A program made the translations under genes and the position numbers. Shown piece by piece: positions 11,369-54,893 of a DNA stretch of 64,000 nucleotides. Numbering within the stretch: position 1 is the first letter of the stretch; every line of letters starts with the position of its first letter. Below the pieces are notes generated by a model that saw only the letters and a list, made by a program, of their open reading frames with translations, was not told the DNA's origin and searched no databases. Origin of the DNA: a virus (taxonomy: Duplodnaviria; Heunggongvirae; Uroviricota; Caudoviricetes). The DNA lies in the IMG/VR virus record IMGVR_UViG_3300028534_000001, positions 132,338 to 196,337 of that record; one strand, given 5' to 3'.

Positions 11369-12196
11369 TTACCATTGAATTTTTTTAAATCTCATATCTT
11401 GAAAAGTATTTTGTTTAATATTAACATTTATAGTATTTTTAGAAGGTTTATTAGAATCTTCTCCTGTACTTATTCCTCCCCAATATTTACTACTTTCACC
11501 TACATTTAAATCAGTTTTTCCATAAATTTCTCTTATATCTAAAGGTGTATCATTTTTATCAATATCACAATAATGATAATCATAAAGAGTTATACTATGT
11601 TTTCCATTTTTAAAAGAAGCATAAATATAATTAGGATATATAGAATATTTCATTTTATTACCTTTTATTGAAGGTATATTATTATAAGATGTTTTATTAC
11701 CTATAAAATCAATAGCATTATAATTTATTTTATAAATTCTTCCTTCTTTTAAACTATTGGGAACATCAAAAGTAAAAGTATAAGGTCTTATACAAAAATG
11801 ATCTTTACTATATTCAGTTTTTATTTTTCCATCAGCTAATTTAAATGTTATTTTATATCTAGCATCTCTACTAATTTTATCAAATTTAGGAAATAAAAAA
11901 ATACCTATTCTTTTAACATTTCCAATTTTTTCATCTTTATTATTTACAATTGAAATATCATAAATTTTTATTATAGGACAAAATATTTGAATATTTTCAA
12001 AAGCACTTTTACCTTTTATTTTTGTTCCTATAATAGATAATATTTCATTTTTACATGAAACATCAACAACATTAACACATCTATGCATAATAGGATTAGT
12101 TTCTGGATGTTTGACATATGGGTGTTTTATGTTTGTATAATTTTCACTATATAAAAAACTAATCAAAATAACAATAAACATTAAAATTTTTTTCAT
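11369..12196 (-). CDS. secreted/membrane-anchored hypothetical protein
   Basis: The N-terminus has a hydrophobic signal/anchor MKKILMFIVILISFLYS. It overlaps the Sir2 gene by 4 nt (ATGA). Confidence 0.45.
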   Translation of the reverse strand: MKKILMFIVILISFLYSENYTNIKHPYVKHPETNPIMHRCVNVVDVSCKNEILSIIGTKIKGKSAFENIQIFCPIIKIYDISIVNNKDEKIGNVKRIGIFLFPKFDKISRDARYKITFKLADGKIKTEYSKDHFCIRPYTFTFDVPNSLKEGRIYKINYNAIDFIGNKTSYNNIPSIKGNKMKYSIYPNYIYASFKNGKHSITLYDYHYCDIDKNDTPLDIREIYGKTDLNVGESSKYWGGISTGEDSNKPSKNTINVNIKQNTFQDMRFKKIQW

Positions 12197-12903
12197 AATA
12201 TCCCCTTATTTTTTAATAATATTTCTAATTCTTTAGGGTTGCTACAATAATTATTATAACCTTTTCTATTATTTTTATCAACTAAAAAGGTCTCACAATT
12301 TGCAAATTTTGCTATTCCATCAATATCTATAACTATAGAACTACTACCTATTACAATTAACTTACTATTAGGGTTTTGTAAATATTCAAAAGCTCTTCTC
12401 ATATATGTATATAACCAAGCATATCCATTAAAAAATACAATATCAGGTTTTACTCCTTTTATACTATTACAATTTGGACATCTATCTTTTTCACAATCCC
12501 AATTTTTATATTTTATTTCAAATTTATTACCACAAGCTGTACATTCCATTTTAGTAATTTTACCATGTACATACATTGTAGGTATTTTTAATCTATCAAA
12601 AAAATCAGATATATTAGTTGTGATATTTATTAAAGTATCTTTATATTTATCATTTAATTTTTTTATAATATAATGATATTCATTACATTTAGAAGATTTT
12701 ATTTGATTTCTTAAAATATTATAAAATTCATGCATAACACAAAAATTTTTCTTCCAAGTTTTATCATTACAAACTATATCTTTGTTATATTTTTCCCAAA
12801 TAGAATCTTTTCCTCTAAATGTAGATAAACCAGACAAAATATCTAATCCTGCACCACTAAAAATTATAATTTTTTCACTACCATCATATCTAGGAATAAA
12901 CAT
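12193..12903 (-). CDS. Sir2-family NAD-dependent deacylase / ADP-ribosyltransferase
   Basis: GAGLDILSGLSTFRG is the Sir2 GAGIS..GIP.FR motif. The catalytic HG is present (YVHGKI). A zinc ribbon is formed by CTACG and CPNCNS. VIGSSSIV is also present. Confidence 0.7.
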   Translation of the reverse strand: MFIPRYDGSEKIIIFSGAGLDILSGLSTFRGKDSIWEKYNKDIVCNDKTWKKNFCVMHEFYNILRNQIKSSKCNEYHYIIKKLNDKYKDTLINITTNISDFFDRLKIPTMYVHGKITKMECTACGNKFEIKYKNWDCEKDRCPNCNSIKGVKPDIVFFNGYAWLYTYMRRAFEYLQNPNSKLIVIGSSSIVIDIDGIAKFANCETFLVDKNNRKGYNNYCSNPKELEILLKNKGIL

Positions 12904-14086: not shown

Positions 14087-14452
14087 CTAATCTTTTGATT
14101 TTAAACAGAAAAATCCTTCTAATGCTGAATCTGTTTCTAATGTAATAAAATATAATCCTTTTTTATTAGGTGTTTCACTTACATAAATTAAAATATTACC
14201 AGCTTCATAAATTTTAAATTTAGTATTATTAAAAGTTGTCCCACCTGATCTATAAAAAGTTGCGTGTGCTTTTCTATTAGTATTGATATTTTTAAGAGCA
14301 ATTTTTAATGTGTCTTCTTTTTCAATAGCATATAACATATCTTTATTATAACTAAATGCTTTACCATCAACTTGTTTTTTAACTGAAATACATTTATATT
14401 CTGACGCAAATAGACCTACAACAAACATTAACATTAACATAACTTTTTTCAT
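14087..14452 (-). CDS. secreted hypothetical protein
   Basis: Signal peptide MKKVMLMLMFVVGLFASEYKC is present. Confidence 0.45.
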   Translation of the reverse strand: MKKVMLMLMFVVGLFASEYKCISVKKQVDGKAFSYNKDMLYAIEKEDTLKIALKNINTNRKAHATFYRSGGTTFNNTKFKIYEAGNILIYVSETPNKKGLYFITLETDSALEGFFCLKSKD

Positions 14453-15550
14453 TTAAATCTCCTTTTTATTTATTATAATTTTAATTTCATCAAATTCATA
14501 CCCAAGAGGCATTTCTAAATTTTTCATCATATTATATAATACATTTTCAGGAATAAATTTTCCTTCAGTTTCAAATCTGTATTTATTTCTAAAAAATAAT
14601 TCTTTAATTGGTGTTAATAAAGTAATAGCAATAGGTGAATGATTTTTTAGATTTGTTAACCATTTTCTTCTACTTTTCCAAGTCATATTAGTCATATCTA
14701 TAATAAAATCTTCATTTGAATTTTTTAATTCAGTAAATTTTTTAGAAACTCTTCTATCAATTTCTTTATGATCATCTTCAGTTAACATATTCCAACCATC
14801 ACTATATGTAGGATAACCTTTGCCTTTGCATTTATTACAAATTGAATGATCTAAATTATCACCTACATATCCTTCAATATAACCTTTGCCATTACAAAAA
14901 TTACAAATAAATTTTTCTTTGATATAATTCATCAAAATATTATCTCTACTTAAAACTTTTAAATTAGGTAAATTTTCCTTAATATAAGTTGATTTTCCAC
15001 TTAAAGGTGTTCCGATCATAATATAACATTTATTTTTTTTAACACCTCTTTTTATGTCTTTAAAATCAACAATGCATTCTTTTGCTTTTCTATTATTTTC
15101 ATTATCGAAAAAAATATTACCAGCTTTATCAAATAATGAAAAATTATATATTTTAAGATATTTATCAATATTTTTAGCAAAATAATGTTTTATTTGTTTT
15201 TCACTTTTTTGCCATAACATCCCGTGATAATTGATTGTATATAAAACATCTAAAATTTTATCTTTACCTAAAATTCTTTCAATATCATCAATATATTCTA
15301 ATGCTTCAAAAGTCGAAATACCTTCGTGACCTCTGTAATAATCTTTTCCATCTTTGTGAGTTTTAGCATTTGGTTTTCCCAAATCATGTAACAAACCAAC
15401 AATTTTATTAAAATCATCATTTGCTTTGCTAAATACAAGACAAGTATGAGTCCAAGTATCACCTTCTAAATGGTATTTTTCACTATGTAAAATAACATTT
15501 CTCAATTTTTCAAAATGATCTTTTTTTATTTTTTTAAATAATGTTTCCAT
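14453..15550 (-). CDS. HD-phosphohydrolase + T4 Pnk-type polynucleotide 5'-kinase fusion with DnaJ-type zinc-finger insert
   Basis: The N-terminal HD domain is marked by H..H and GLLHDLGKP. The C-terminal IMIGTPLSGKSTYI, SRDNI and DMTNMTWKSRRKW align to T4 Pnk IGCPGSGKSTWA, NRDDY and DTNLNPERRLAW. The insert carries CNFCNGKG and CNKCKGKG. Confidence 0.6.
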   Translation of the reverse strand: METLFKKIKKDHFEKLRNVILHSEKYHLEGDTWTHTCLVFSKANDDFNKIVGLLHDLGKPNAKTHKDGKDYYRGHEGISTFEALEYIDDIERILGKDKILDVLYTINYHGMLWQKSEKQIKHYFAKNIDKYLKIYNFSLFDKAGNIFFDNENNRKAKECIVDFKDIKRGVKKNKCYIMIGTPLSGKSTYIKENLPNLKVLSRDNILMNYIKEKFICNFCNGKGYIEGYVGDNLDHSICNKCKGKGYPTYSDGWNMLTEDDHKEIDRRVSKKFTELKNSNEDFIIDMTNMTWKSRRKWLTNLKNHSPIAITLLTPIKELFFRNKYRFETEGKFIPENVLYNMMKNLEMPLGYEFDEIKIIINKKEI

Positions 15551-15779: not shown

Positions 15780-16265
15780 TTAAGAAATTTTTTCTAATAT
15801 TTTGATAACTTGATTTTTTAAATGTTCTAAATCTTTTGTATTATCTATAATATAATCAAACAATTCATCTGATAAATCTTGTTCTGTTATATGATTATCT
15901 TCATTTTTATTAAATCTTTTTACTTTTATTAGTATAGCATTCTGTTTTTTAAGAAATTCAATTTCATTCATAAATCTAACATCTGTAACTATTATTTTAT
16001 TTTTTAAATTTTGATCTACATAATTTATAAATTGATTCTCATCATATTTTCTCATTAACATACCTATATTTCTGAATATATGTCTCCAATAAGGTATTCT
16101 TTTTAGTGTATCATATGTATGTTCATCTATTTGAAATATTTTAAAAATTTCTTTTTTAATTGGGTCTGCAAAAGCAATTTTATTAAATTCATTATCTATT
16201 TCTTTTATAATTTGATATACTGTATCTTTTCCACTTCCTTTTAAACCATGTAAACCTATAATCAT
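15780..16265 (-). CDS. deoxynucleoside monophosphate kinase (T4 gp1-like)
   Basis: MIIGLHGLKGSGKDT matches T4 gp1 MKLIFLSGVKRSGKDT. DPIKKEI matches GPIKDAL and DNHITE matches DTHITE. Confidence 0.7.
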   Translation of the reverse strand: MIIGLHGLKGSGKDTVYQIIKEIDNEFNKIAFADPIKKEIFKIFQIDEHTYDTLKRIPYWRHIFRNIGMLMRKYDENQFINYVDQNLKNKIIVTDVRFMNEIEFLKKQNAILIKVKRFNKNEDNHITEQDLSDELFDYIIDNTKDLEHLKNQVIKILEKIS

Positions 16266-16303: not shown

Positions 16304-17434
16304 TTAATTATCTAAATTTTTGATAAATTCTCTTGCTTTAGTAAGTTTAGAATTATCTTTTATTATTTTTTCTTTTAATAATTTATCTAAATCATTTTCA
16401 TTCTTTGCTTTCATTATAACTCCAAAATATGGGTATTTATTATATTTCATTGCAAATTCTTTTCTTTCCATATTTAGTTTTTCTTTAAAAAGATTTAAAC
16501 ATTTATTATATGTATGATTATAAAAATGTGAAACTTTGTTTGTTAATTCAGATATAATTTTATGTTTTTCACCTTTTAAATTTGATAAAATATCATCAAT
16601 TGTTTCATTTATAATATGTTCTATAAGTTTATTTTCAACTAATTCATTAGGTGATAATAATTTATGTAATGTAAAATACCACATTGTTTTAAATTTTCTA
16701 AAAGATGTTTTGAGTGGGTGATTATAATTTCTTACTACCCATCCTTCAATTCCTTCTTTTGTTTCTAGTAATTTTCTTAATTCTGATAATGTATAATTAT
16801 ATTTTTTTGCTAATTTTAAATTAAATTCTTTTGAAAAATGTTTTAAATCTTCATAATGTAAATATTCACCTGTAAATTTATTTCTTATTTGAATTAGTCT
16901 AAGTTCAAATTCTTCTTCATAATTAACAACAATTAAATTTTTCCACCCAACTAATTCAAAAAATGGAATAAATCCAATAAGTTTACAAGCTTTAATAAAA
17001 TTTAAATAATTTTCATTATTTTTAATAAATTTATTTGCTAAATCAGCTTGTTCTGAATAAAAAGAACCTTTAGTTCTAAGTAAAAAATTACCTTTTGAAG
17101 AAAATGTAGGAACAATTAAACTTCCATCTAATTTTTCCATAATTTCTAATTTATCATTATCATTCCAAGGTTTTTCTAATTCTTTATCAATAGTTAAAGG
17201 ATTTTCATTATCATTAAAAAATTTATGAAGACCTAACCATCTTTCTCCTGTATCCAAATTAAAACATAATCCTCTCATTTCTAATCTTTTAAAATCTTCA
17301 CTAAAATCGGTAAAACTTGCTAATCTATAATTAAAAATTCTAAATTTTTCTCCATCAAATTCCTCATCTTTATAATAAAAAGATTCATTATTTTCAACTA
17401 CTTTCATTGCTTCTTCTAAAGTTATTAAATTCAT
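16304..17434 (-). CDS. rnlA: RNA ligase 1 (T4 RnlA-like)
   Basis: At 376 aa it is close to T4 RnlA (374 aa). N-terminal FYYKDEEFDGEKFRIFNYRLASFTDF matches FFYSDDVS.GRTYRIFSYNYASYSDW. Motif I is EKLDGSL. Confidence 0.75.
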   Translation of the reverse strand: MNLITLEEAMKVVENNESFYYKDEEFDGEKFRIFNYRLASFTDFSEDFKRLEMRGLCFNLDTGERWLGLHKFFNDNENPLTIDKELEKPWNDNDKLEIMEKLDGSLIVPTFSSKGNFLLRTKGSFYSEQADLANKFIKNNENYLNFIKACKLIGFIPFFELVGWKNLIVVNYEEEFELRLIQIRNKFTGEYLHYEDLKHFSKEFNLKLAKKYNYTLSELRKLLETKEGIEGWVVRNYNHPLKTSFRKFKTMWYFTLHKLLSPNELVENKLIEHIINETIDDILSNLKGEKHKIISELTNKVSHFYNHTYNKCLNLFKEKLNMERKEFAMKYNKYPYFGVIMKAKNENDLDKLLKEKIIKDNSKLTKAREFIKNLDN

Positions 17435-17470
17435 TTTTATTCCTTATAATTATCATGGATATTTTATATA

Positions 17471-17499
17471 ATTATACTAAATTTTCAAATAAAAGTCAA
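17471..17499 (-). promoter_or_regulatory. sigma70-type early promoter
   Basis: The attata element is at 17471-17476 and agtcaa at 17494-17499, with a 17 nt spacer. Confidence 0.7.
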
Positions 17500-17507
17500 G
17501 AGAAATA

Positions 17508-18524
17508 TTAAATTTCTCTTTTTAAAATATCCCTTACTATTTCTTGAGCTGAAGGTCTTGCTAAATTTTGAATAATTTTTTTCTCGCCTTTATCTAATTC
17601 ATTAAATTTAGGATTATCTTTAATAAAATCTTCTAAAGCATCTTTGAAAAATAATCCTACAATTTTACCAAATTGTTTCCAATCTTTTTCAACTTCACCT
17701 TTTGAAAATAAATTATGAAGTCTATTAACTTCAAAGTATTTTGTAATTTCTTCTGCCCATTTTCTTTGTTCATCTGTAATTACAATTTGTTTTTTATTTT
17801 TAATTTTTTTAATTTTACCTTTTTCTTTAAATTTATCATTTTTATTTTTAAGAATAACTCTATCACCATTAGGCAATGTTTTATTAACTACTGGTTTAAT
17901 TACAACACCTTCACAAATATTTCCTTCTATAGGATTTAATCCATACAATTCAGGGATTTTTGTAGGAAATTCATTTGAAAATTGTAAACATTCTTCAAAT
18001 GTTCCTCTAAATAATTCTGGAACTACTTTAAATTCACAATTAAAAGCTAAATTTTTAACTTTATCCCATTCTAAAAATTCAGCATTTTCATCCTCATCAA
18101 CAGTCATAATATCAAAAACCATAAAATCAGTAAATGGAATATAATGAACTTCTTTTTGAATTTTTGTAAACCCTGGTTTAGTTTCACCATTAAAAATACC
18201 ACCAAAATGTTCTCCAAAAATTTGAACTTGTTTAATTTTTGGATTTTGTGAAATTAAAAAAGATGCAACTTTTTTAGCTGATTCTCTGTAATTTTCAAGC
18301 ATAATATCTGCATCATAAAATTTTTCTAATTCATTATCATTTAAAACAGATGTTCTTTTAGCAACTTTAACATTTTCTCCATCTGAAATGAAGCTAAAAT
18401 TTGTCCCGTGAATTTTTTCAGTAACTACCCATTCACAACAATCTATAATTCCACTTGTGATAATTCTTTTAATTTCTTTTTCTCTGTAAGAATTTTCAAT
18501 TGATGAATATTTTTTAAATTTCAT
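17508..18524 (-). CDS. rnlB: RNA ligase 2 (T4 Rnl2-like)
   Basis: MKFKKYSSIENSYREKEI...CEWVVTEKIHGTNFS is nearly identical to the T4 Rnl2 N-terminus and motif I EKIHGTN. At 338 aa it is close to T4 Rnl2 (334 aa). Confidence 0.8.
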   Translation of the reverse strand: MKFKKYSSIENSYREKEIKRIITSGIIDCCEWVVTEKIHGTNFSFISDGENVKVAKRTSVLNDNELEKFYDADIMLENYRESAKKVASFLISQNPKIKQVQIFGEHFGGIFNGETKPGFTKIQKEVHYIPFTDFMVFDIMTVDEDENAEFLEWDKVKNLAFNCEFKVVPELFRGTFEECLQFSNEFPTKIPELYGLNPIEGNICEGVVIKPVVNKTLPNGDRVILKNKNDKFKEKGKIKKIKNKKQIVITDEQRKWAEEITKYFEVNRLHNLFSKGEVEKDWKQFGKIVGLFFKDALEDFIKDNPKFNELDKGEKKIIQNLARPSAQEIVRDILKREI

Positions 18525-18557
18525 ATTTTCTCCTTTTGATTTATTTTTTATAATATA

Positions 18558-18586
18558 ATTATATCATATTTTAATAGAAAAGTCAA
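18558..18586 (-). promoter_or_regulatory. sigma70-type early promoter
   Basis: The attata element is at 18558-18563 and agtcaa at 18581-18586, with a 17 nt spacer. Confidence 0.7.
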
Positions 18587-18975
18587 GAATTTTCTTTTAA
18601 TTTTAATAATTTTTCTTTAATTTCTTTCCATATTTTATTTTTTTGTTGGTTAAATTCTAAGACATCATCACTAGGAGCACTAAAATAAAATCCTATTCCT
18701 TCGTCAAATTTATAAATTACATTTGGATTTAATAATTTTTTTAATTCATCAATTTCTACATCATTAGAAAAAGAAATATAAGGCACCCATCTTTCATCAA
18801 CTTTACCATTTTTACATAAAAGATGACCTTCACAACTCCAAGTAGTTGTATATCCTAATTCATTAAACAAAGGTATAATTTCTTGAATCATTTCATCTAT
18901 TAAAACTTTTTTTCCATTTATAATGACTGGTACTTGCATTTTTACTTCCTTATTTAATTTTTTGATAATATTCAA
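18583..18975 (-). CDS. hypothetical protein
   Basis: 130 aa ORF. Confidence 0.4.
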   Translation of the reverse strand: MNIIKKLNKEVKMQVPVIINGKKVLIDEMIQEIIPLFNELGYTTTWSCEGHLLCKNGKVDERWVPYISFSNDVEIDELKKLLNPNVIYKFDEGIGFYFSAPSDDVLEFNQQKNKIWKEIKEKLLKLKENS

Positions 18976-19402
18976 TTATTTTTTTAGAAAATTCTTCTAA
19001 AATATTTTCTAAATTTATATCAATTTTATCATTTACATTAGAATTTAATTTTGTTAAAATGTTTAATTTTTCTTTAAAATCATCTTTTAAATCTTCAATA
19101 TTTTCATCTATTGAAACACCATTTAATAATTTTTTTTCTAAATCTAAAATTTTATTAAATTCTAATTTTAATTCTTCTATATTAAAAGGGATTTTTACAA
19201 CTCTTTTTTTCACTTCTTCATTTAATTTGAATTTTATAAATTCTTTTAAATTAGTTTCAATATATTTTTCTGTCGTATATGTATGATTAAAAGGAATTTC
19301 AACATCAAACGGAATTTTACTTGATGACTCTAACAAAACTTTTATTTCCAAAATATCTTCTAATGTCTTTAAATCTTTTTTTACTGATGTAAATAATTTC
19401 AC
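18950..19402 (-). CDS. hypothetical protein
   Basis: 150 aa ORF. Confidence 0.4.
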   Translation of the reverse strand: MKLFTSVKKDLKTLEDILEIKVLLESSSKIPFDVEIPFNHTYTTEKYIETNLKEFIKFKLNEEVKKRVVKIPFNIEELKLEFNKILDLEKKLLNGVSIDENIEDLKDDFKEKLNILTKLNSNVNDKIDINLENILEEFSKKIIEYYQKIK

Positions 19403-19411
19403 TTTTTCTCC

Positions 19412-19633
19412 TTACTTAAAAATAAATAAATCTAATGGATAAAATATAAATGCTCCTATTATTGAAACAATTACTAAATGTATATATTCTTGATATTTAC
19501 CTTTACAACAATCATATTTTACTAAGATATATAAAGGTAACATCATAATAAAAGCACTTAAAATCCATCTGAATAAATAAATTAAAAAAATTTTAGTTAA
19601 ATATATACTAACAACACTCACATAATTCTCCAT
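19412..19633 (-). CDS. small membrane protein
   Basis: 73 aa with two hydrophobic helices. Confidence 0.3.
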   Translation of the reverse strand: MENYVSVVSIYLTKIFLIYLFRWILSAFIMMLPLYILVKYDCCKGKYQEYIHLVIVSIIGAFIFYPLDLFIFK

Positions 19634-20057
19634 TTTCTAATATTTCATAATTATTAAATTTATTTATAGCATAATTAAATGTTGGAATATTAGAATATAA
19701 ATTTTTAATTTTTGCTAAACAAGTTTTTTTATTTATTACAATATTTTTATCAAATTCAAAATTATCTATTATTACTTTTTTTACTATACAATTTTTATTA
19801 GTATAATAAGATATATTATAAATTAAAACATATAACATTTTTACAAATTCTTCATAATTTATATTAGATAAAATATATTTTTCGGATAAATTTTTATCAT
19901 TAGTTATAAATATATTATCAATAGAATTCAAAAAACATTCAATGTTTTTTTCACAGGATATATCAGAAATATCTATTTTTATATTTATATCTTTTACATC
20001 TAAATTGTTTGAAGCAAAACAAATTTTTATTTGTTTATTCAATTTTATCCTCCTCAA
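19608..20057 (-). CDS. hypothetical Cys-containing protein
   Basis: 149 aa ORF. Confidence 0.35.
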   Translation of the reverse strand: MRRIKLNKQIKICFASNNLDVKDINIKIDISDISCEKNIECFLNSIDNIFITNDKNLSEKYILSNINYEEFVKMLYVLIYNISYYTNKNCIVKKVIIDNFEFDKNIVINKKTCLAKIKNLYSNIPTFNYAINKFNNYEILENGELCECC

Positions 20058-20361
20058 ATAAATATTCTTCTTTAATTCCTTTAGAGTCTAAAATAAATTT
20101 TATTGTATTGTGAATTCTTTTTCCATTATCGTCTTTGAATTCAGTTAATAAAGAATTAAAACTAATTGGTTTAATTAAAATATTAACATTTTCAGATAAT
20201 TTATTTAATAAATCATAATAAAATTTTATTTCTTTTGTATTATTTACTTTTATATATAAAGAAGATGTATTTGGAAAAAAACAATTACCTAAAATATCCA
20301 TAATAAATTTTATAGTTTTGTCTTTTTCTATACTTAAATGTAATTTTTCTACATTTATCAT
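20035..20361 (-). CDS. hypothetical protein
   Basis: 108 aa ORF. Confidence 0.4.
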   Translation of the reverse strand: MINVEKLHLSIEKDKTIKFIMDILGNCFFPNTSSLYIKVNNTKEIKFYYDLLNKLSENVNILIKPISFNSLLTEFKDDNGKRIHNTIKFILDSKGIKEEYLFEEDKIE

Positions 20362-20406
20362 TTTAAAAATCCTTTTTATTTTATTATATCATATATATTA
20401 AAATTA

Positions 20407-21039
20407 TCAAACTTTTTTAGGGGCTACTTTTCTAAATTCACTCATAAGATTATTAAAAATTGGTTTATATTTTTTATTTATACAATCCCATTCAAAATTA
20501 CAATTTTTATAATCTTTTAAAATTTCATCTAAAGATATATAATAAGGAAATTCATATGCTCTTTTATCATTTTTAGCAATAAATGTTGCCCAATATATTA
20601 GTCTTAAACTATGAAAAAGACTCTTAGCAGAAATTAAAATTTCATTATGTAAATTTAATTTTTTCTTTGCTTTTACATATGAATTATTAACTTTTTTAGA
20701 TATAAATTTTCTTAATTTTATTTTATCAATATCATTTATTAGTAAATTAAAATTATATTTTTTAATAGGATTTTTATTGAAAAACATTGCTAAAAACATG
20801 TCATTACATTCATTTATTAAATCTATTAAATTTTCTTCAGATATAATATGTATATCAATTTTTTTACTTTCATAAATATCATAATAAATATCTTTATAAT
20901 TAGTAATTATTAAAAAATCATAATCAGAATTTTCATTGTTTGAACCATATAATCTAGAACCATATTCATAAATTCCTAAAATATTTTCTTTTGATATATT
21001 ATAATTTTCTTTTAAAATTTTATATATTAAATTTTCCAT
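20407..21039 (-). CDS. pol-beta superfamily nucleotidyltransferase
   Basis: GSRLYGSNNENSDYDFLII is the GS...D.D nucleotidyltransferase motif. It is paralogous to 25218..26225. Confidence 0.5.
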   Translation of the reverse strand: MENLIYKILKENYNISKENILGIYEYGSRLYGSNNENSDYDFLIITNYKDIYYDIYESKKIDIHIISEENLIDLINECNDMFLAMFFNKNPIKKYNFNLLINDIDKIKLRKFISKKVNNSYVKAKKKLNLHNEILISAKSLFHSLRLIYWATFIAKNDKRAYEFPYYISLDEILKDYKNCNFEWDCINKKYKPIFNNLMSEFRKVAPKKV

Positions 21040-21041
21040 AT

Positions 21042-21560
21042 TTACTCCTTTTTGTGTTTAATCAATTCTTCAACAAAACTATACATATTTTTTGGAATTT
21101 CATATAAATCCTCAGCAAATAAATAATATTTATTATCAATTTCACAAATATACTCAGGTTCTTCCATATAAGAATTTTTAGTATTTTTTATTTTAATTTT
21201 ATATGATTTTACTTTATTTCCTCTTAATTTATTAAGTTTTTCTGACAAAGAATTAAAATAAATTTTTACTTTTTCTTTTAAATCTTCAAAAAAATATCCT
21301 TTTATTTTTAATAAATCTTTATAATCACCATAAGATTGTTGTCCAAATTCTTTAGGATATATTTCGTATATATTATAAATAAAAATTTCTTCGTAAGGTT
21401 TATCAGAAATTATATTTTTAGCATTTTTTTTAATAAGTTTTAAAGTATCTTCCAAATTATTTGGAAGTACAATTAAATCTTGATACCCTAATTCTTCCCC
21501 ATATAATTGAATTCTATAACCTTTAAATTTTAATTTTACATTTACATTTAATTCTTTCAT
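21042..21560 (-). CDS. hypothetical protein
   Basis: 172 aa ORF. Confidence 0.4.
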   Translation of the reverse strand: MKELNVNVKLKFKGYRIQLYGEELGYQDLIVLPNNLEDTLKLIKKNAKNIISDKPYEEIFIYNIYEIYPKEFGQQSYGDYKDLLKIKGYFFEDLKEKVKIYFNSLSEKLNKLRGNKVKSYKIKIKNTKNSYMEEPEYICEIDNKYYLFAEDLYEIPKNMYSFVEELIKHKKE

Positions 21561-21622
21561 ATTTTTAAACCTTTATTCAATGTATGTACAAAATGAAATA
21601 GAGTAAATAAATTTACTTCCAA

Positions 21623-21910
21623 TTATACTAAAAACCATACCAACATTATTGATGTGTAAAATAAAAAAGTTAAAAACGTTACGCTTTTCCAATTAGATTC
21701 ATTTACTAATAATAAAATAATAATACTAGGTAAAATACCTAAAGAAGGGCTTACTAATATATTTATAGCTATATTTATAAAAATATTTAACAAAGCTATT
21801 ATAATAAATATAAAATCATAATTTTTAAATCTATTTTCAAATTTTTGAAAAGACATCAATCTTTTCAAAATATTATCTAATTTTTCTTTTTTAGATATTC
21901 TTTTAATCAT
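21623..21910 (-). CDS. small membrane protein
   Basis: 95 aa with hydrophobic segments. Confidence 0.35.
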   Translation of the reverse strand: MIKRISKKEKLDNILKRLMSFQKFENRFKNYDFIFIIIALLNIFINIAINILVSPSLGILPSIIILLLVNESNWKSVTFLTFLFYTSIMLVWFLV

Positions 21911-21919
21911 ATTTACCCT

Positions 21920-22876
21920 TTAATATTTTTCATATTTTAACCTTGGTTTAATATTACCATTTAATAAAGGTGTATTTTCTACTGTTTTAATATAAGATGT
22001 AATTTCTTTATTTAATTCTTCTTTTTTAATTTCTAATTGATTTACTAAACTATCTAATTCTTTTTTGAAATTTAATCTACTATCAGTTAAAGTTTTTACT
22101 GTTTTTGCTTCAATTAAATTATCTTGACTAAGTTCAATAGCATCTTTAATAGCTTCTTTTGTATTTTTATCATTTAGTATTATGAATTCATTTAAAACTT
22201 CTTTAACTACATCATAATTTTGTTTAATATTTTTCATTTTATTATTTTGTGATGCAATTACAAATTGCATTTTTAACATAGATTGAATTTGTGGAGACAT
22301 TTCTTCTGCTTTTTGTTTCATACTAGCAAAAGATTGAATTTGTAATCTACATTCCTCTAAATTATTTGTATTGATGACATTTAAACTTTTTAAACTTCTA
22401 ATCATATTATCAATTTCAATTTTTTCAAGTTCATTTCTAGGTTTTAATTTTTTTAATTCTTTAATTTGATTTTCAATATCTTTTTTTGCTTGTTCATTTA
22501 CTACATAAATTTCTTTATAATATTGAAATTTTTCTTCAGTATCTTTAATTATTTCATCTTGAATTCTTTTTAAATCATCAGAAATATCTTTTAATGAACT
22601 TCTATTTATTTCAAAATCATCTATTTTTTCTTTTACAAAAGGGACATATGACAAAACTTTACCAAAAAATGTTTGTTTTCTAGATGTATCTAATAATTGT
22701 CTTGCTTGCATCAATTTAGATACTAATTCTTGGAAATTTTCATTTAATTCATCAACATTAGTATTAGATAAAATATCATCTGTTACATTTTCAATATTTT
22801 CTTGGATTCTTTTATATTCATATTTTATTTCTGTTAAAGTGTCTTCATAATACCCTTCAAAAATTTCTTTATTCAT
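21920..22876 (-). CDS. coiled-coil hypothetical protein
   Basis: 318 aa ORF. Confidence 0.45.
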   Translation of the reverse strand: MNKEIFEGYYEDTLTEIKYEYKRIQENIENVTDDILSNTNVDELNENFQELVSKLMQARQLLDTSRKQTFFGKVLSYVPFVKEKIDDFEINRSSLKDISDDLKRIQDEIIKDTEEKFQYYKEIYVVNEQAKKDIENQIKELKKLKPRNELEKIEIDNMIRSLKSLNVINTNNLEECRLQIQSFASMKQKAEEMSPQIQSMLKMQFVIASQNNKMKNIKQNYDVVKEVLNEFIILNDKNTKEAIKDAIELSQDNLIEAKTVKTLTDSRLNFKKELDSLVNQLEIKKEELNKEITSYIKTVENTPLLNGNIKPRLKYEKY

Positions 22877-22887
22877 TTTAACTCCTT

Positions 22888-23877
22888 TTAATATTGGTAA
22901 ACATAAGTTAAATTAGGAATATTGCCTAATAAATTTTGTAATTCATATAACATTTCTTTGTTATCAATTTTATATACAATTTTTAAATCATCTTTTGTGT
23001 CATTATTTTTTAAATACAATCCTATAATATAAGATGTTAAAAATTTATTTCTATTAAAATATTTATCTTTTTGAATATCAAGTAAAGAATTTATATTTTT
23101 TATTTCAATATTTAAATATTTTTTTACTTTTTTTGGTAATAAAGATGGACTATCTAAATAATTGTTTAAAATCATATATAATAATCCAAATTCTTGTTGA
23201 ATATTTTTATCATCTAAAATTTTAGTTTGAATTCTAAATGAATTATTTATTGTAATTTCTTCACTTAAAAAACTTTTTTTTGATTTTTCACAATATGTCA
23301 TTCCAATATATTTTGGAAATACACCTAAAAACATCAATTCTTCTTTAAAAATATTATAATCAGATTTTAAATTATTTATTGTTGTTTTTACCATTTTTTC
23401 AATTTCTTTTTCATTATTTTCTTTGATTTTTTTTGCTTTTTCAATAAATTCTAAACTTTCTAAATATCTTTTAATAAAATTTAAAAGTTTATCATTTACT
23501 TTTATGTTTACTTTATTATTTTTAAAATTATTATAACTTTCATCAAATAAAATTTTTTTATTTTTAGGTTTTAATAATATATGATATCCTTTTTCTTTAA
23601 GTATATCTTGAAGTATAAACACATTATAATCTTTACTAAATATATCATTAAAAAAAGATTCTGGTATCATATATGGAGTATTTTTTGATAAATTTACAAA
23701 TATTGAATTAGAATTATATATTTTTGTTTCTTCAATAATATATCCATCTAAAAATTCTTCATAATTTTTTAAAATATTTTCTATTTTTTCTAATTCTTTA
23801 ATAGTTTCAAAAATAGATAATTTTTCTACTTTATGTTCTTTTATATTTTTTAATTTTAAAAATCCAAATAAATTCAT
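22888..23877 (-). CDS. hypothetical protein
   Basis: 329 aa ORF. Confidence 0.45.
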   Translation of the reverse strand: MNLFGFLKLKNIKEHKVEKLSIFETIKELEKIENILKNYEEFLDGYIIEETKIYNSNSIFVNLSKNTPYMIPESFFNDIFSKDYNVFILQDILKEKGYHILLKPKNKKILFDESYNNFKNNKVNIKVNDKLLNFIKRYLESLEFIEKAKKIKENNEKEIEKMVKTTINNLKSDYNIFKEELMFLGVFPKYIGMTYCEKSKKSFLSEEITINNSFRIQTKILDDKNIQQEFGLLYMILNNYLDSPSLLPKKVKKYLNIEIKNINSLLDIQKDKYFNRNKFLTSYIIGLYLKNNDTKDDLKIVYKIDNKEMLYELQNLLGNIPNLTYVYQY

Positions 23878-23886
23878 ATTTTCTCC

Positions 23887-24264
23887 TTATAATTGATTAA
23901 CAATATAATTCCCTGCTTCAATAATTGCTTCTATCTCTGTATTACCAAAAAATTCCTTATTTAATAATGATATATAACATATAGATTTATTTTTATTACA
24001 AAATGAACTATTTAGAATATAACCTTGGTAATCATAAGCCCATTTTTTTATTTCAAAAACAAATTCAAAAACATTTAATTCTTTATAAAAATTTTGTTTA
24101 GTGTTATAATAATCATTTTGCAAATGTTTATTAAATTCTGTTTTATGTAATTCATTAGGAGTGCAATAAATTTTACAAATTATTTTATTACCTTCAATAG
24201 TAATATATTCAATAAATTTTTCATCAATTCCTATAATTTTACTAAATAATTTTTTACTAATCAT
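23887..24264 (-). CDS. hypothetical protein
   Basis: The start was moved to the ATG at 24264 with an AAGGAG RBS, because the track start overlaps the promoter -10. Confidence 0.4.
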   Translation of the reverse strand: MISKKLFSKIIGIDEKFIEYITIEGNKIICKIYCTPNELHKTEFNKHLQNDYYNTKQNFYKELNVFEFVFEIKKWAYDYQGYILNSSFCNKNKSICYISLLNKEFFGNTEIEAIIEAGNYIVNQL

Positions 24265-24291
24265 GATTTCTCCTTGACTTTTTATAATATA

Positions 24292-24320
24292 ATTATACAA
24301 TAAAAAAAGAAAAAAGTCAA
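24292..24320 (-). promoter_or_regulatory. sigma70-type early promoter
   Basis: The attata element is at 24292-24297 and agtcaa at 24315-24320, with a 17 nt spacer. Confidence 0.7.
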
Positions 24321-24526
24321 GGTTTTTTAATATAAATTTGATTTTTATATTTAATACCTTTATTTATACATTTTCCTGTTTGTTTACTATATTCAAAACA
24401 TATCTCTTCTACATCAGGTTTTGTAAAAGCTTTATATATACCATAAAATAGAAAAAATATCATTACTAATAATATTAAATTTCCTATAATTTTTTCTTCT
24501 AAAGTTGGTTTAGGGAAATAACCCAT
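24317..24526 (-). CDS. small membrane protein
   Basis: 69 aa with one transmembrane helix. Confidence 0.35.
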   Translation of the reverse strand: MGYFPKPTLEEKIIGNLILLVMIFFLFYGIYKAFTKPDVEEICFEYSKQTGKCINKGIKYKNQIYIKKP

Positions 24527-24553
24527 AATTTATCCTTTTAATTTAAAAATTTT

Positions 24554-25141
24554 TTAATTTTTTAAAAAATTATAAAGTTTTAACATTGGAGGATTATATA
24601 AATTATTTTTATCATAAGTATCTAATTGAATTAAATCTTTTTTAATATCTTTAAGTGTTAAAGGATGTAATGATATATATCTAACATCTCTTTGCCAAGA
24701 CATAGAACTTCTTTCGAAACCTTTAAAAGAAAATATAAATACTAATTCATCTCTTTTAATATCCATAAATGATGTTCTTCCATCAGGAACTAATCTATCT
24801 GTAATAATAAAAACATATTTAAAAGATATAACTTTTTTAATTGTTTTTTTATTTTTAGAATAAATATCATTAAAAAAATCTTCAAAATCATTTTTTAAAA
24901 AAGATATAAATTCTTTATCATTATCAAAAAATATTCTTATTTCTTTTTTTGTAAAAAGTTTAAATGCATGATTTTTTAAACCTTTTCTTATTTTTTTAGC
25001 ATAACTTTTTAAGTTGAAATTTTTCTTTTCAATTTCATCTAATACTAAATCAAAAACTACTCTATCAAATTCATTATCAAGTAATTTATAAATTAACTTA
25101 TGCGATATTGAATGTTTTAATTCTTTTAAACTTATTTTCAT
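24554..25141 (-). CDS. hypothetical protein
   Basis: 195 aa ORF. Confidence 0.4.
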   Translation of the reverse strand: MKISLKELKHSISHKLIYKLLDNEFDRVVFDLVLDEIEKKNFNLKSYAKKIRKGLKNHAFKLFTKKEIRIFFDNDKEFISFLKNDFEDFFNDIYSKNKKTIKKVISFKYVFIITDRLVPDGRTSFMDIKRDELVFIFSFKGFERSSMSWQRDVRYISLHPLTLKDIKKDLIQLDTYDKNNLYNPPMLKLYNFLKN

Positions 25142-25192
25142 GTGAAATCCTTATATTTTTACAAAATTTTTTCATATTTTTTATATATAATA

Positions 25193-25221
25193 ATTATAAC
25201 AAAAAAGAAAGGAAAAGTCAA
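25193..25221 (-). promoter_or_regulatory. sigma70-type early promoter
   Basis: The attata element is at 25193-25198 and agtcaa at 25216-25221, with a 17 nt spacer. Confidence 0.7.
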
Positions 25222-26225
25222 GAACAAAATTCTTTTTTAAGCAATTTCATAAACATTTTTTCTAATTCATTCCAATTTGCTTTTTTAGGTAAATTTTCTT
25301 TTGCTACATCTTGAAGTTTTTCAAAATTTGCGAACTCAATTTCCATTTTTTCTTCTAATTCTTCAAGTGTAAATTCTAAATTTCTAATTTTTTTAAGTTC
25401 TTCAGCATTTTCTAATGGGAATTTTAACTGTTTTTTAACAATTAAATCTCTACCTTCTTCTAATAATCTAAATAAATGAAGAAAAAATTTAGCATCGTAT
25501 CCAAATTCTTTCCATTGTTCTGCTCTATGACTTGCACTAGTAATCTTTTCTTTCATCATTTTGTTTGCTTTTTTAATAAATAAATTTCTTGGAAATGTTA
25601 AATTACTTACAACAATTCCATCTTTTTTGAATAAATGTTTAAAAGGTGCAAATTCATTATAATGTTGAATTTCTCCAACTGTCATAATTCCATCGTGATT
25701 TTCAATAAATTTTTCAATTGTTTTTTGTAATGAAATTAAGTCTTTATAATTTACTGCTTTGTTTTTACCTTTTTTCATTTGACTTTTAGCATAACCCATA
25801 AATGAATGAAATACTCTTTGATTGATAAATAATTCACTATTATTTTGAAATTCTTCAAATTCTGGTGTATTGAATACAACTGCTTCAGGATTTGTATTGG
25901 CAAAAAGTAATTCTACAATGTTCGGATTTACATCTCCAGCTAATTTTAAAAATTTTTTTAATTCATAAACTTTACAATCTAATGCATCTTTTGTATTTTT
26001 ACCACTTTCATCTTTTACAACTTCTGATAAATCAACTTCTTCAACATTTTTAAAACCTAAGTGAAATTCAGGATTAGCTAAGAATACACCTAAAAAATCT
26101 ATGTCTGATTCAGGTGTATTTGTTCCATATAATTGACTACCACTTTTTGTCAAAAATAATAATCTCCCAAAAGGTTTAATTCTTTCTTTTACCATTTCTA
26201 AAATTTCTTGATTTGTTTTTAACAT
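25218..26225 (-). CDS. pol-beta superfamily nucleotidyltransferase
   Basis: LTKSGSQLYGTNTPESDIDFLGVF is the GS...D.D nucleotidyltransferase motif. 335 aa. Confidence 0.5.
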   Translation of the reverse strand: MLKTNQEILEMVKERIKPFGRLLFLTKSGSQLYGTNTPESDIDFLGVFLANPEFHLGFKNVEEVDLSEVVKDESGKNTKDALDCKVYELKKFLKLAGDVNPNIVELLFANTNPEAVVFNTPEFEEFQNNSELFINQRVFHSFMGYAKSQMKKGKNKAVNYKDLISLQKTIEKFIENHDGIMTVGEIQHYNEFAPFKHLFKKDGIVVSNLTFPRNLFIKKANKMMKEKITSASHRAEQWKEFGYDAKFFLHLFRLLEEGRDLIVKKQLKFPLENAEELKKIRNLEFTLEELEEKMEIEFANFEKLQDVAKENLPKKANWNELEKMFMKLLKKEFCS

Positions 26226-36052: not shown

Positions 36053-37420
36053 TTATTTTCTTTTTCTTTTAAATTCGTGAACATCATTAAACATAATTTG
36101 AACAATTTTATCACTTTGTTCAATTTGAATTATATGTTTTTCATCTTTAGATAATTCTAAAAATGTTTTCCCATCACACCAAATATGAAAAGGTTTTCTT
36201 GATTTTATTTTAATTGTTAAATTTTGAGGTTCTAAAACATAATGGATTTTTCTATTAGTTTTATCTCCTGTTATAACCCAATTATTTGAAGTTAAAGGTA
36301 AAATAACACCACCATTATTTTTATTTATACCAGTACTACCTTGAGCAGTTGATACAATTATACCACTACCTTTGAAATCTTCAATTTGTTCATCTTTATC
36401 ATCAACACTAAAATCAATCCAAGACGACATATCACCACCTATACATATTTCATTAAAAGCTAAATGCCAATTATTTTCATATTTTACTTTTAATAAATGT
36501 AGTGAAATAATTTCAGGATTTGATATATTTTCTTCTTTATTCATAAGAAAATTTAAAGTACCTTTTCCAACACCATAAAAAGGTTTGTTTTTAAAAGAAA
36601 ATTCTCTTATAGCAAGAAGCATTGTTCCATCACCACCATATACTTTAATAAAATTTGTATATTCTACTATTTTATAATATTTATCAAATGTTTTTAATTC
36701 CCAAATAATTTCACCCCAAAATTTCCATTCATTTAATAATTTGAATGTTTTTTCAAAAAGGTATTTTTTACCTAATTCTTTATTTTTTCTAATTTCTCTT
36801 GCGTGAATAACATTTCCATTATTAGTAAATTCTTCAATATTTTTAATGTGATATCCTTCTAATCCAAAAATAGTAGGATAATTACCGTGATATTTTTTAT
36901 TTTTATATTCAAAATCAATCTTATCGACATCTTTTAAATGTGAATATAAAATAATATTTTTTTTAGATGATATGTCTAAAATTTGTTTTTCTATATTTTC
37001 AAACCATTTATCCCAAGATTCATAGTCATTAGCTCCTATTATAATAGCATTTGGGTATATTTTTTCAATAATTTCTTTTCTTTGTTCAAAAGATAAAGGA
37101 TTTTTATCATCAAGTATTTTATTTATACTACCTATTACAATTATAGGTATTAAACCATCTTCAATAATTTTATTAACAATACTAGCATGTCCTTTGTGGA
37201 AAGGTTGAAATCTTCCTAGAAATAATCCATATTTTTGGTTATAATTTTCATCACATATAAAACTTTCAATAAAAAATTGACCTCCCATAGGAGTATCAGA
37301 ACCTACTTTAAATCCACATTTAGAACATTTATAAATAGTTACTCCATTTCCTTTATATTCTTCTTCAATTATTTCTCTATAATTTTTTGAATATATTCCA
37401 CATTTAGGACATTTATACAT
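36053..37420 (-). CDS. bifunctional NMN adenylyltransferase (NadM-type) / NAD kinase fusion with N-terminal zinc ribbon
   Basis: The N-terminus is CPKCG...CSKCG. GLFLGRFQPFHKGHASIV...IIVIGS matches the archaeal NadM motif GRFQPFH.GH...IG.GS. The C-terminal domain carries the NAD kinase motifs GGDGTMLLA, GVGKGTLNFL, NEICIGG and GIIVSTAQGSTGINKNNGGVILP. Confidence 0.7.
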   Translation of the reverse strand: MYKCPKCGIYSKNYREIIEEEYKGNGVTIYKCSKCGFKVGSDTPMGGQFFIESFICDENYNQKYGLFLGRFQPFHKGHASIVNKIIEDGLIPIIVIGSINKILDDKNPLSFEQRKEIIEKIYPNAIIIGANDYESWDKWFENIEKQILDISSKKNIILYSHLKDVDKIDFEYKNKKYHGNYPTIFGLEGYHIKNIEEFTNNGNVIHAREIRKNKELGKKYLFEKTFKLLNEWKFWGEIIWELKTFDKYYKIVEYTNFIKVYGGDGTMLLAIREFSFKNKPFYGVGKGTLNFLMNKEENISNPEIISLHLLKVKYENNWHLAFNEICIGGDMSSWIDFSVDDKDEQIEDFKGSGIIVSTAQGSTGINKNNGGVILPLTSNNWVITGDKTNRKIHYVLEPQNLTIKIKSRKPFHIWCDGKTFLELSKDEKHIIQIEQSDKIVQIMFNDVHEFKRKRK

Positions 37421-43515: not shown

Positions 43516-44901
43516 TTATTTATCTATATTTTCTCTAATTTTATCAAGTGTTATTTCGTTTTTTATTTCTCCATTCTCAAAAACAACTTTTAGCATATCA
43601 ATATCGTTAGGTTGTTTTTCACTTTCTTTAATACAGATAATTTTATCATTTCTTTTAACAGTAATTACTTTACCTTTTTTAGATTGTTTTTTACTATCTG
43701 TTATAGGATTTTTAAACACTTCAACTCCAACTTTTTTACTATCTATATTTCTTTCAATATAAGAACATTTCATAGCAAAACTAAATGTATCTCTATCAAT
43801 TCCAGTTTGCCCTAATTGTGTTCCACTACCAAAAACAAAATTTTCAGCTGCATATCCTCTTTCTGTAAATATTTTAAGGATGTTATCAATTGTTTCAGGA
43901 TTAACACCATCACCCCATAGCACGCTCGTCCAACTACTTGCTTTCTTTCCATTTATTTCAATATCAAAAACATTGTTTTTTTCCATAATTTCAAACATTT
44001 TAGAAATGACTTCAATTGGGTTTCCACTATCTGGACGAATAACAAATGTTTGATTATTTTTAATAATTGATTTTCTAATATTACTTTCAGGTTTTGTAAC
44101 TTCATTTGTAAAATTATAAATATCATAACTATCTGCCACAAATGATAGGATAGCACCTTCTTTATCATTTTCTCTAACCATTCTTTCAATAAATGCTATT
44201 TCTTTTTCAGTTGAACCTTCAGCGTTAGCAGTAGTTGAACTATGTTCCGACGCAAATACGCTAAAAGCGCTTATTTCAGAACTATAAAAATCTCTTGCGA
44301 ATTTAAGAGAATTAAAATTATCTGTCCCATAAAATACACAATTATGAGCGAAACCACTAATTGCTGCTGATTCTACACTTGTCATACTTCTATCCCCAAA
44401 GTTATGATAAGCAAATCTTGCCCATTCTTCACTTCCATATTTTTTAAGCATTTCAAAAACCTGTTTGCTTTTAGTTGTAATAACTGTAGGATACCATATT
44501 TTCATAAGTATTGTCTCCACCCATCCTACTATCCACGGAACATTTTCATCTGTGCTTTCTACTATTACAAGTGGAACACCAGGTTTAACTTTTACACCTT
44601 CTTCAATTGCTTTAATTTTAATAGGAAGTCTTCCATCAAGTTCTTTAGCAATATACATCCAACCATCATAATTAAAATCTATTCCGTGAAGTTTAGCAAA
44701 TTTTGCTGCTTCTTCTACCATTTCTGTAGTAATTCTTTGACTAAGATACCTTTTTAGGTAATATTGAAGACCACTCATAATAATTGTATCAGGACCTTTT
44801 CTTGCCTCGATATAATCATACATATAACACATATCTTTTGGGTATTGTTTATAATGACCATATTTATAAGAATCACTCATCATTACTATATTTTCAACCA
44901 T
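43516..44901 (-). CDS. nadV: nicotinamide phosphoribosyltransferase (NadV/NAMPT)
   Basis: SDSYKYGHYKQYP matches NAMPT TDSYKVTHYKQYP. ADSYDIYN, VIRPDSGNP, FGSG, KCSY and VFKNP..D..K.SKKG all match NAMPT signature blocks. The length is 461 aa. Confidence 0.85.
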   Translation of the reverse strand: MVENIVMMSDSYKYGHYKQYPKDMCYMYDYIEARKGPDTIIMSGLQYYLKRYLSQRITTEMVEEAAKFAKLHGIDFNYDGWMYIAKELDGRLPIKIKAIEEGVKVKPGVPLVIVESTDENVPWIVGWVETILMKIWYPTVITTKSKQVFEMLKKYGSEEWARFAYHNFGDRSMTSVESAAISGFAHNCVFYGTDNFNSLKFARDFYSSEISAFSVFASEHSSTTANAEGSTEKEIAFIERMVRENDKEGAILSFVADSYDIYNFTNEVTKPESNIRKSIIKNNQTFVIRPDSGNPIEVISKMFEIMEKNNVFDIEINGKKASSWTSVLWGDGVNPETIDNILKIFTERGYAAENFVFGSGTQLGQTGIDRDTFSFAMKCSYIERNIDSKKVGVEVFKNPITDSKKQSKKGKVITVKRNDKIICIKESEKQPNDIDMLKVVFENGEIKNEITLDKIRENIDK

Positions 44902-53455: not shown

Positions 53456-53568
53456 TTCCTGTCCTTTTATTTTTATTTATTCAAACAATACATTAACAAT
53501 ATAAAAAATCTTTAATAATATTATTAAATTCAATTTTAAACACAATTTTATTATAATTTGATTTTAAA

Positions 53569-54855: not shown

Positions 54856-54893
54856 ATCATATCCTTTTATCTAATAAAGGAAAAAATCCCTTA

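Follow-up and report, generated by a model that had tools for sequence, protein, structure and literature searches.

A probable HD-domain polynucleotide kinase with a recurrent Cys4 insert, encoded among candidate RNA-repair genes of a large AT-rich phage

A single 365-aa open reading frame with an ATG start, at 14453..15550 (−) of the window (the whole 64,000-nucleotide stretch of phage DNA analysed here), encodes what its sequence identifies as a member of the HD-Pnk family (the end coordinate takes in the stop codon). The protein comprises an N-terminal HD phosphoesterase domain (aa 1–145; 15116..15550 (−)), a weakly conserved interdomain linker of varying length and lower model confidence (aa 146–170; 15041..15115 (−)) and a C-terminal P-loop polynucleotide 5'-kinase domain (aa 171–365; 14456..15040 (−)). 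Inside the kinase domain lies a Cys4 zinc-ribbon insert (aa 214–246; 14813..14911 (−)), which is a minor recurrent variant within this known family. From the homology and gene linkage established here, we consider that the protein probably heals RNA ends as part of a repair set encoded by the phage, and that the RNA repaired is most likely tRNA.

A previous sequence-only reading of this locus had proposed an unusual, domain-swapped analogue of Pnkp, in which an HD domain replaces the HAD phosphatase and precedes a T4-type kinase. All of the motifs quoted in that reading were found in the 365-aa frame: YHLEGDTWTH (aa 26–35) and LLHDLGK (aa 53–59) in the HD half, and IGTPLSGKST (aa 179–188), SRDNI (aa 201–205) and DMTNMTWKSRRKW (aa 285–297) in the kinase half. 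The kinase half further contains RNKYR (aa 321–325).

Kinase and HD active-site motifs

We compared the protein with its relatives in family alignments of 25 sequences (A1) and 46 sequences (A3). In the kinase half, G180, G185, K186, S187, T188, S201, R202, D203, D285, T287, K292, R321, R325 and K331 were invariant or nearly so in both. The features recognized there were a P-loop (G180-x4-G185-K186-S187-T188), a catalytic Asp within SRD (D203), D285-x-T287-N and a lid (R321-N-K-Y-R325), so that the C-terminal half carries the GxxxxGK[ST], catalytic Asp and RxxxR lid of the polynucleotide kinase clade. As a single sequence, the protein matched Pfam AAA_33 over aa 177–348 (E = 2e-8, above the gathering score), and its best phmmer match in the PDB was the Pnkp1 kinase from the Pnkp1–Rnl–Hen1 repair complex. 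Searching the PDB with the A1 profile returned the kinase domains of Pnkp1 (E = 2.7e-16), PSTK (E = 1e-13), T4 Pnk (E = 2e-10), CthPnkp (E = 2.7e-10) and mammalian PNKP (E = 4e-8).

In the printed profile alignment, GKST, (S/N)RD, DxTN and RNxxR fell in register with T4 Pnk, where we take their counterparts to be K15/S16, D35, D85-T86-N87 and R122/R126. These alignments, together with the PDB profile matches to Pnkp1, T4 Pnk and CthPnkp, bear out the T4 Pnk-like character that had been claimed for the kinase block. The position matching T4 Pnk R38 is hydrophobic in the phage protein and across the family, with no basic counterpart, so acceptor binding may differ from that of T4. PSTK was the second-best PDB match, and a PSTK-like role as a tRNA-aminoacyl kinase was judged less likely because the full-length homologues are proven polynucleotide kinases whose kinase is fused to an end-healing HD domain.

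The HD half was similarly conserved, with H27, E29, H35, H55, D56, G58, K59, H75, H109 and D141 invariant or nearly so in A1 and A3, giving an N-terminal HD domain with the conserved His/Asp metal ligands in the order H…HD…H…H…D. Because the six ligands H35 (or H27), H55, D56, H75, H109 and D141 are invariant, the domain probably carries a two-metal centre. Loss of the metal ligands on careful alignment had been named beforehand as evidence that would count against an HD phosphoesterase; all were kept in the 46-sequence alignment, so that objection falls away.

The single-sequence Pfam match to HD was below the gathering score (aa 49–119, E = 0.013). The A1 profile matched the HD domain of the Aquifex aeolicus class II nucleotidyltransferase 3wfo (E = 3.7e-5), and hhalign paired the HD half with residues 214–355 of Escherichia coli Cca (probability 94%, E = 9e-8). 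In the latter alignment, YHLEGD..H paired with WHPEID..H of Cca, and H55-D56, counted from the printed alignment, landed on Cca residues 255–256. By sequence, the domain is thus most like the HD domain of tRNA CCA enzymes; it sits N-terminal to the kinase in a protein that has no detectable HAD domain, as the sequence-only reading had it.

Relationship to known end-healing enzymes

The phage protein differs in architecture from three groups of enzymes with which it shares a domain. T4 polynucleotide kinase-phosphatase (PseT; PDB 1ltq, 1ly1) has its kinase first, followed by a phosphatase of the HAD (DxDxT) type. Pfam, NCBIfam and PDB profile searches of the phage protein gave no HAD match, the protein ends ~20 aa past the kinase fold, and PDB matches to T4 Pnk spanned only T4 residues 2–144; a C-terminal HAD 3'-phosphatase after the kinase, as in T4-type Pnkp, was therefore not found. 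Class II CCA enzymes (E. coli Cca; A. aeolicus 3wfo) have a Pol-beta nucleotidyltransferase head, whereas in the phage protein the HD domain begins the chain at residue 1 and its fusion partner is a kinase: only the HD region of Cca aligns, and Pfam gave no match to PolyA_pol or NTP_transf, leaving no Pol-beta head N-terminal to the HD domain of the kind that marks a CCA enzyme or poly(A) polymerase. Pnkp1 (of Pnkp1–Rnl–Hen1) and CthPnkp (PDB 4xrp, 4gp6) have the solved kinase domains closest to ours by sequence, but their phosphatase is a binuclear metallophosphoesterase rather than an HD domain, and their partners are Hen1 and a ligase domain or subunit of their own. Against the bacterial Pnkp model TIGR04075 (bacter_Pnkp) the phage protein scored 13 bits, over the kinase segment alone, where the cut-off is 750 bits, and Pfam gave no Metallophos match; neither the central metallophosphoesterase nor the C-terminal ligase-like adenylyltransferase of bacterial Pnkp was present.

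A close architectural match among characterized enzymes came from phage RM378; we take its characterized PNK to be Rm378p110, whose record (NP_835697) reads 'probable poly A polymerase'. At ~361 aa, Rm378p110 too is encoded by a phage and joins, in one chain, an HD domain at the N terminus to a T4-like kinase at the C terminus; the two proteins were collinear over aa 22–348 (26% identity, BLASTP E = 5e-28), with HD and kinase motifs kept. RM378 differs in that a single alignment gap replaces the Cys4 insert and in that its host is thermophilic. In PMC1997131, the RM378 enzyme is credited with 3'-phosphatase activity and counted as a PNKP of the HD-domain type (citing Blondal et al. 2005, J Biol Chem 280:5188); the same paper notes an earlier proposal that PNKPs having an HD phosphohydrolase domain make up a subfamily.

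Two bacterial proteins extended this comparison. Deinococcus radiodurans DRB0098 is an HD-plus-kinase PNKP with demonstrated 5'-kinase activity (Blasius 2007, PMC1997131); its gene lies on megaplasmid MP1, within a published operon that also includes genes for a macro-like protein (TIGR02452) and an RNA-ligase-family protein, and hhalign aligned both of its domains with A1 (probability 99.0, E = 4.9e-18, 290 columns). [quoted passage not shown] In our alignment Runella was represented by a plasmid homologue from Chondrinema litorale (Cytophagales, the order that includes Runella), which matched A1 with a probability of 99.6 (E = 7e-24) and whose gene directly abuts an 'RNA ligase family protein' gene, the arrangement described for Runella. 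The bacterial HD-Pnk proteins share the domain order and motifs of the phage protein, and all are linked to a polynucleotide ligase. They differ in having a longer linker (proteins of 376–413 aa), L rather than R before the catalytic Asp and neither YSDxW nor the zinc insert, and in place of Rnl1 or Rnl2 they are partnered by an uncharacterized ligase-like protein of the ATP-dependent kind, together with a macro-like protein or Tpt1.

Full-length collinear homology thus linked the phage protein to the characterized HD-Pnk enzymes of RM378 and D. radiodurans, with the Cytophagales homologue standing in for that of Runella. Because these homologues align across both domains, we place the protein by sequence in the HD-Pnk family rather than in a new architecture. 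The functional part of the earlier proposal is very likely right, the exchange of HAD for HD being supported in silico in both structure and function; what does not stand is its description as unusual or newly predicted, since the family is established. The same exchange, with reversed domain order, was reported for the RM378 phage enzyme in 2005 and for bacterial HD-Pnk enzymes between 2007 and 2018 (including Schmier & Shuman 2018), as these reports are cited in later papers, and a new member adds little conceptually.

The family is large and its annotation is poor. We recovered 43 relatives from a collection of 5.8 billion proteins, many with precomputed PF01966 (HD) and PF13671 (AAA_33) matches. 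A profile search of 1.84 billion cluster representatives (50% identity clusters) matched 978 clusters at E ≤ 1e-30 and 8,845 at E ≤ 1e-10; among the best 150 cluster matches, the profile aligned end to end in all but a few that were truncated at one end. By tblastn, 57 of 50,697 phage records matched, 52 of them Campylobacter T4-like phages with 27–30% identity over 90% of the query; the others were RM378, Salicola phage SCTP-2 and three uncultured phages. Homologues in the Campylobacter phages are variously labelled 'polyA polymerase', 'AAA family ATPase' and 'putative polynucleotide 5' kinase and 3' phosphatase', and the full-length PHROGs match, phrog_6931 (E = 7e-53), is labelled 'unknown function'. 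In BFVD, the homologue of Campylobacter phage PC5 gave a full-length fold match (TM 0.71/0.75). The 'polyA polymerase' labels on phage homologues were carried over from the similarity of the HD domain to CCA enzymes. A phage family of at least 978 clusters, mostly misannotated in these ways, could now be corrected.

A candidate RNA-repair gene set

The gene is carried by a large (about 207–222 kb), very AT-rich phage with T4-like nucleotide-metabolism genes. An identical protein is encoded on metagenomic contigs of 207–222 kb; the window has a G+C content of ~20%, all its open reading frames of at least 150 aa lie on the − strand, and it contains no tRNA genes. Phage-type genes in it encode a phage helicase, nicotinamide phosphoribosyltransferase, cytidylyltransferase, dNMP kinase, dCMP deaminase and Sir2. 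The HD-Pnk gene is tightly packed head-to-tail with its neighbours: an upstream 53-aa frame stops 3 nt short of it, and a downstream 121-aa frame begins at the very next base.

Upstream of HD-Pnk, beyond the neighbouring dNMP kinase gene (15780–16265 (−)), lie two RNA ligase genes. An Rnl1-family (T4 RnlA-like) ligase of 376 aa (16304..17434 (−)), 0.75 kb away, matched PF09511 (E = 2e-20) and, under the equivalog cut-off, TIGR02308 (E = 4e-41), and has a KLDG adenylylation motif at K101. An Rnl2-family ligase of 338 aa (17508..18524 (−)), ~2 kb away, has KIHGTN at K37 and matched PF09414 (E = 2e-26), TIGR02307 above its cut-off (E = 4e-65) and the T4 Rnl2 C-terminal domain PF18043 (E = 5e-13). 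Further upstream are a 210-aa RlaP-like nucleotidyltransferase of Pol-beta fold (20407..21039 (−); PF18765, E = 9e-6; PF10127, E = 3e-5) and a 335-aa RlaP (RNA-ligase-associated Pol-beta) nucleotidyltransferase (25218..26225 (−); PF10127, E = 2e-22). The two ligases and the two RlaP-type enzymes are all encoded on the HD-Pnk strand within 11 kb, associating HD-Pnk with polynucleotide ligases in this genome.

RlaP enzymes extend the 3' ends of damaged RNA by one or two nucleotides, helping to restore tRNA function (PMC12776372). In a survey of jumbo phages, sets of ligase, kinase, phosphatase and RlaP were described as countering host tRNA cleavage, with an HD-like phosphatase in the RNA-repair sets of a few (PMC7824862). 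The Rnl1, Rnl2 and RlaP neighbours of HD-Pnk therefore point to the repair of nuclease-cut RNA, most likely tRNA, and the window offers a compact candidate RNA-repair set for reconstitution: HD-Pnk, Rnl1, Rnl2 and two RlaP-type enzymes.

Reading the chemistry and substrate across from the characterized relatives, we propose the following course of events. [quoted passage not shown] The N-terminal HD domain would strip the 2',3'-cyclic, 3'- or 2'-phosphate to give a 3'-OH, and the C-terminal P-loop domain would move the gamma-phosphate of an NTP onto the 5'-OH, with K186 and S187 holding NTP and Mg, D203 acting as general base and R321 and R325 forming the lid. The healed 3'-OH and 5'-PO4 ends could then be sealed by the Rnl1- and/or Rnl2-family ligases encoded 0.75–3 kb upstream, and the two RlaP-type nucleotidyltransferases could make good any loss of nucleotides from the broken ends. 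Since characterized relatives can work on ends of either RNA or DNA, RNA is put forward here only as the probable natural substrate.

Linkage to RNA ligase genes recurs in the family. Two distant relatives on unrelated contigs (L014 and L015) have an Rnl1 gene in the same orientation 3–6 kb upstream; an RlaP gene accompanies it on one contig, and a capsid gene of T4 Gp23 type is present on the other. Not all relatives show this linkage: no RNA ligase was found in the flanks examined of the homologues P0007 and P0011, Campylobacter phage CP220 and RM378 (4-kb flanks). A 380-aa gene upstream of P0011, considered as a possible Rnl1, was not an Rnl1 homologue.

The main competitor to RNA repair is healing of DNA, in which the enzyme would ready breaks or nicks in phage DNA for a DNA ligase by converting their 3'-phosphate and 5'-OH termini. 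The D. radiodurans HD-Pnk has been proposed to act on DNA in radiation and mitomycin C resistance, DRB0098 phosphorylates a 5'-OH DNA 25-mer (PMC1997131), and the Runella enzyme is termed a DNA/RNA end-healing enzyme in a reference title in PMC6097658. Genomic context also lends this idea something, as the nearest ligase-like gene to P0011 is an ATP-dependent DNA ligase (PF01068) ~3 kb upstream and our gene itself adjoins a dNMP kinase and other DNA-precursor genes. We nevertheless regard DNA healing as unlikely: the nearest ligases in the window belong to the Rnl1 and Rnl2 families of RNA ligases and lie with RlaP nucleotidyltransferases, a family whose substrate is RNA, the Rnl1 linkage is seen again in distant relatives, and the HD domain is closest to that of tRNA CCA enzymes.

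That similarity also makes it very unlikely that the substrates are small molecules, with the HD domain hydrolysing a nucleotide or signalling nucleotide (cyclic oligonucleotide, (p)ppGpp or dNTPs) and an AAA_33/Zeta-like kinase phosphorylating a nucleoside, nucleotide or sugar, in nucleotide metabolism or counter-defence. The HD half fits the CCA-enzyme type best, the best matches of the kinase half (Pnkp1, PSTK, T4 Pnk, CthPnkp and PNKP) are all polynucleotide or tRNA kinases, and polynucleotide kinase activity has been demonstrated for two full-length homologues, DRB0098 and (as cited in PMC1997131) RM378 Pnk. We give hardly any credence to the idea that the kinase alone is catalytic, with a degenerate HD domain serving as an RNA-binding or scaffold module and 3' ends healed by another phage or host enzyme. 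Such degeneracy would suit the sub-threshold Pfam score of the single-sequence HD domain and one study of DRB0098, in which the HD-motif mutants H81A and D82E showed no drop in 3'-phosphatase signal; the authors of that study blamed E. coli contamination (PMC1997131). However, none of the six putative metal ligands varies among 46 divergent sequences, as expected of an HD domain that is still catalytic, and relatives are credited with HD catalysis: the RM378 PNK is cited as having HD 3'-phosphatase activity (in PMC1997131), and the Runella HD-Pnk is described as a 2',3'-phosphoesterase (in PMC6097658).

The Cys4 insert in the kinase domain

Relative to most of the family, the phage protein and the two relatives nearest to it (72% and 70% identity) have ~30 extra residues, placed after the helix that follows the catalytic Asp and before the conserved YSDxW motif. 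This insert contains two DnaJ-type CxxCxGxG knuckles (C216-NF-C219-NGKG…C238-NK-C241-KGKG), and its region gave weak Pfam matches to DnaJ_CXXCXGXG and Anti-TRAP. Among the family members examined, the insert was missing from RM378, CP220, Chondrinema, DRB0098 and most metagenomic homologues.

We scanned 276 family proteins, of which 222 could be scored for the spacing between the catalytic Asp and DxTN. This was 40–59 residues in 194, and 13 of the 222 combined at least four Cys in the segment with a spacing of 74–108. The homologues P0053 and P0116 likewise bear a Cys4 insert. With an insert at the same site in at least 13 other family members, the idea that it is exclusive to the lineage of the phage protein was ruled out. 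In a neighbour-joining tree built from columns outside the insert, that lineage fell among relatives without an insert, and a second, larger branch held most of the other inserts. This pattern would fit at least two gains of the insert within the family, a reading that we offer only as a suggestion because the tree has no support values.

By sequence register rather than coordinates, the insert matches residues of about 43–50 in T4 Pnk, which we presume to be the phosphate-acceptor side of the kinase fold. From this position, we infer that the zinc ribbon either touches the RNA substrate or merely stabilizes the loop. A more far-reaching idea, which we put forward tentatively and regard as less likely than not, is that the ribbon is an element for substrate recognition or partner docking (for example, of the tRNA anticodon stem-loop or Rnl1), gained separately at one site in two or more branches and defining an undescribed zinc-dependent subclass of polynucleotide kinase with altered substrate specificity. 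The HD-Pnk literature covered, in which the Runella and RM378 enzymes figure through later citing papers, contained no description of the Cys4 insert.

PDB searches found no HD-Pnk structure. The phage protein would be worth pursuing structurally, and its zinc-ribbon insert, a recurrent feature beside the kinase active site, provides a handle on substrate selection. In structure models, the insert region had pLDDT < 50 when the alignment held only three insert-bearing sequences; with more such sequences, a beta-hairpin (aa 224–229 and 232–237) was predicted between the two knuckles with pLDDT 75–85.

Inserts in the kinase and HD domains

The kinase domain of HD-Pnk, the 365-aa ORF in which an N-terminal HD domain precedes a C-terminal P-loop polynucleotide 5'-kinase, carries a predicted Cys4 zinc-ribbon insert (window 14813-14911; residues 214-246 of the ORF). 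Sequence scanning, alignment and a neighbour-joining tree (built on the columns outside the insert, without support values) placed Cys4 inserts at the identical kinase-domain site in two separate branches of the family. Among relatives retrieved from protein collections, the insert was also found in P0053, P0066, P0116, P0151, P0187, P0188, P0196, P0204, P0214-P0216 and P0242. These inserts were unlike one another in both sequence and length, which suggests that the site is an insertion hot-spot or under repeated selection.

The HD domain of P0053, P0116 and P0025 has a further lineage-specific insert of about 30 residues, directly after the HDxGKP motif (columns ~113-146 of the family alignment A2; for example, VIPFEAKKPAHTESNEIRNEGKNDGKDSGLNR). 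The branch with this insert is the one that also holds most of the zinc inserts.

Database labels of HD-Pnk homologues

GenBank records commonly give the homologues from phage RM378 (NC_004735, Rm378p110) and from Campylobacter phages (for example, CP21, NCTC12673, CP30A and PC14) the label 'poly A polymerase' or 'AAA family ATPase'. PHROG 6931, the phage family that matches HD-Pnk over its full length, is listed as 'unknown function'. As the homologues do not have a nucleotidyltransferase head, the polymerase label appears to be a carry-over from the likeness of the HD domain to class II CCA/poly(A) enzymes.

Genes neighbouring HD-Pnk and elsewhere in the window

Upstream of HD-Pnk lies a candidate RNA-repair cluster (window 16304-26225, minus strand). 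It codes for two RNA ligases, one of the Rnl1 family and one of the Rnl2 family, and for two nucleotidyltransferases, of which the first (20407-21039) is an RlaP-like Pol-beta enzyme and the second (25218-26225) an RlaP; several ORFs without a family match are scattered among them. Directly downstream, a 121-aa ORF (14087-14452, minus strand) begins at the base next after the HD-Pnk stop codon; its N-terminus is hydrophobic and signal-peptide-like (MKKVMLMLMFVVGLFASEYKC), a Pfam scan gave no match to it, and the contig of a 72%-identity HD-Pnk relative has an ORF of comparable length (125 aa) in the equivalent place.

Three further minus-strand genes are NAD-related. They encode a Sir2-family protein whose zinc site has the form CxxC...CxxC (12193-12903), a cytidylyltransferase-like protein, possibly an NMN adenylyltransferase (36053-37420), and a nicotinamide phosphoribosyltransferase (43516-44901; PHROG 448, E 4e-119), and together they resemble a set used by phages for NAD+ salvage or counter-defence. 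Four large minus-strand ORFs of 428-554 aa (51968-56330 and 60249-61913) had no PHROG match at E<=1e-5, and for that reason may encode novel structural or other phage proteins.

Composition of the window and nature of the phage

G+C content is extremely low across the whole window (1-64000), at 16-26% with a mean of about 20%; a strongly negative GC skew runs along its full length, all ORFs of at least 150 aa lie on the minus strand, and a tRNA gene search over 1-64000 found none. The identical HD-Pnk gene is carried by metagenomic contigs of 207-222 kb, so the window probably comes from a phage of jumbo size whose host is AT-rich. As regards the HD-Pnk gene, its closest isolated relatives are the Campylobacter phages.
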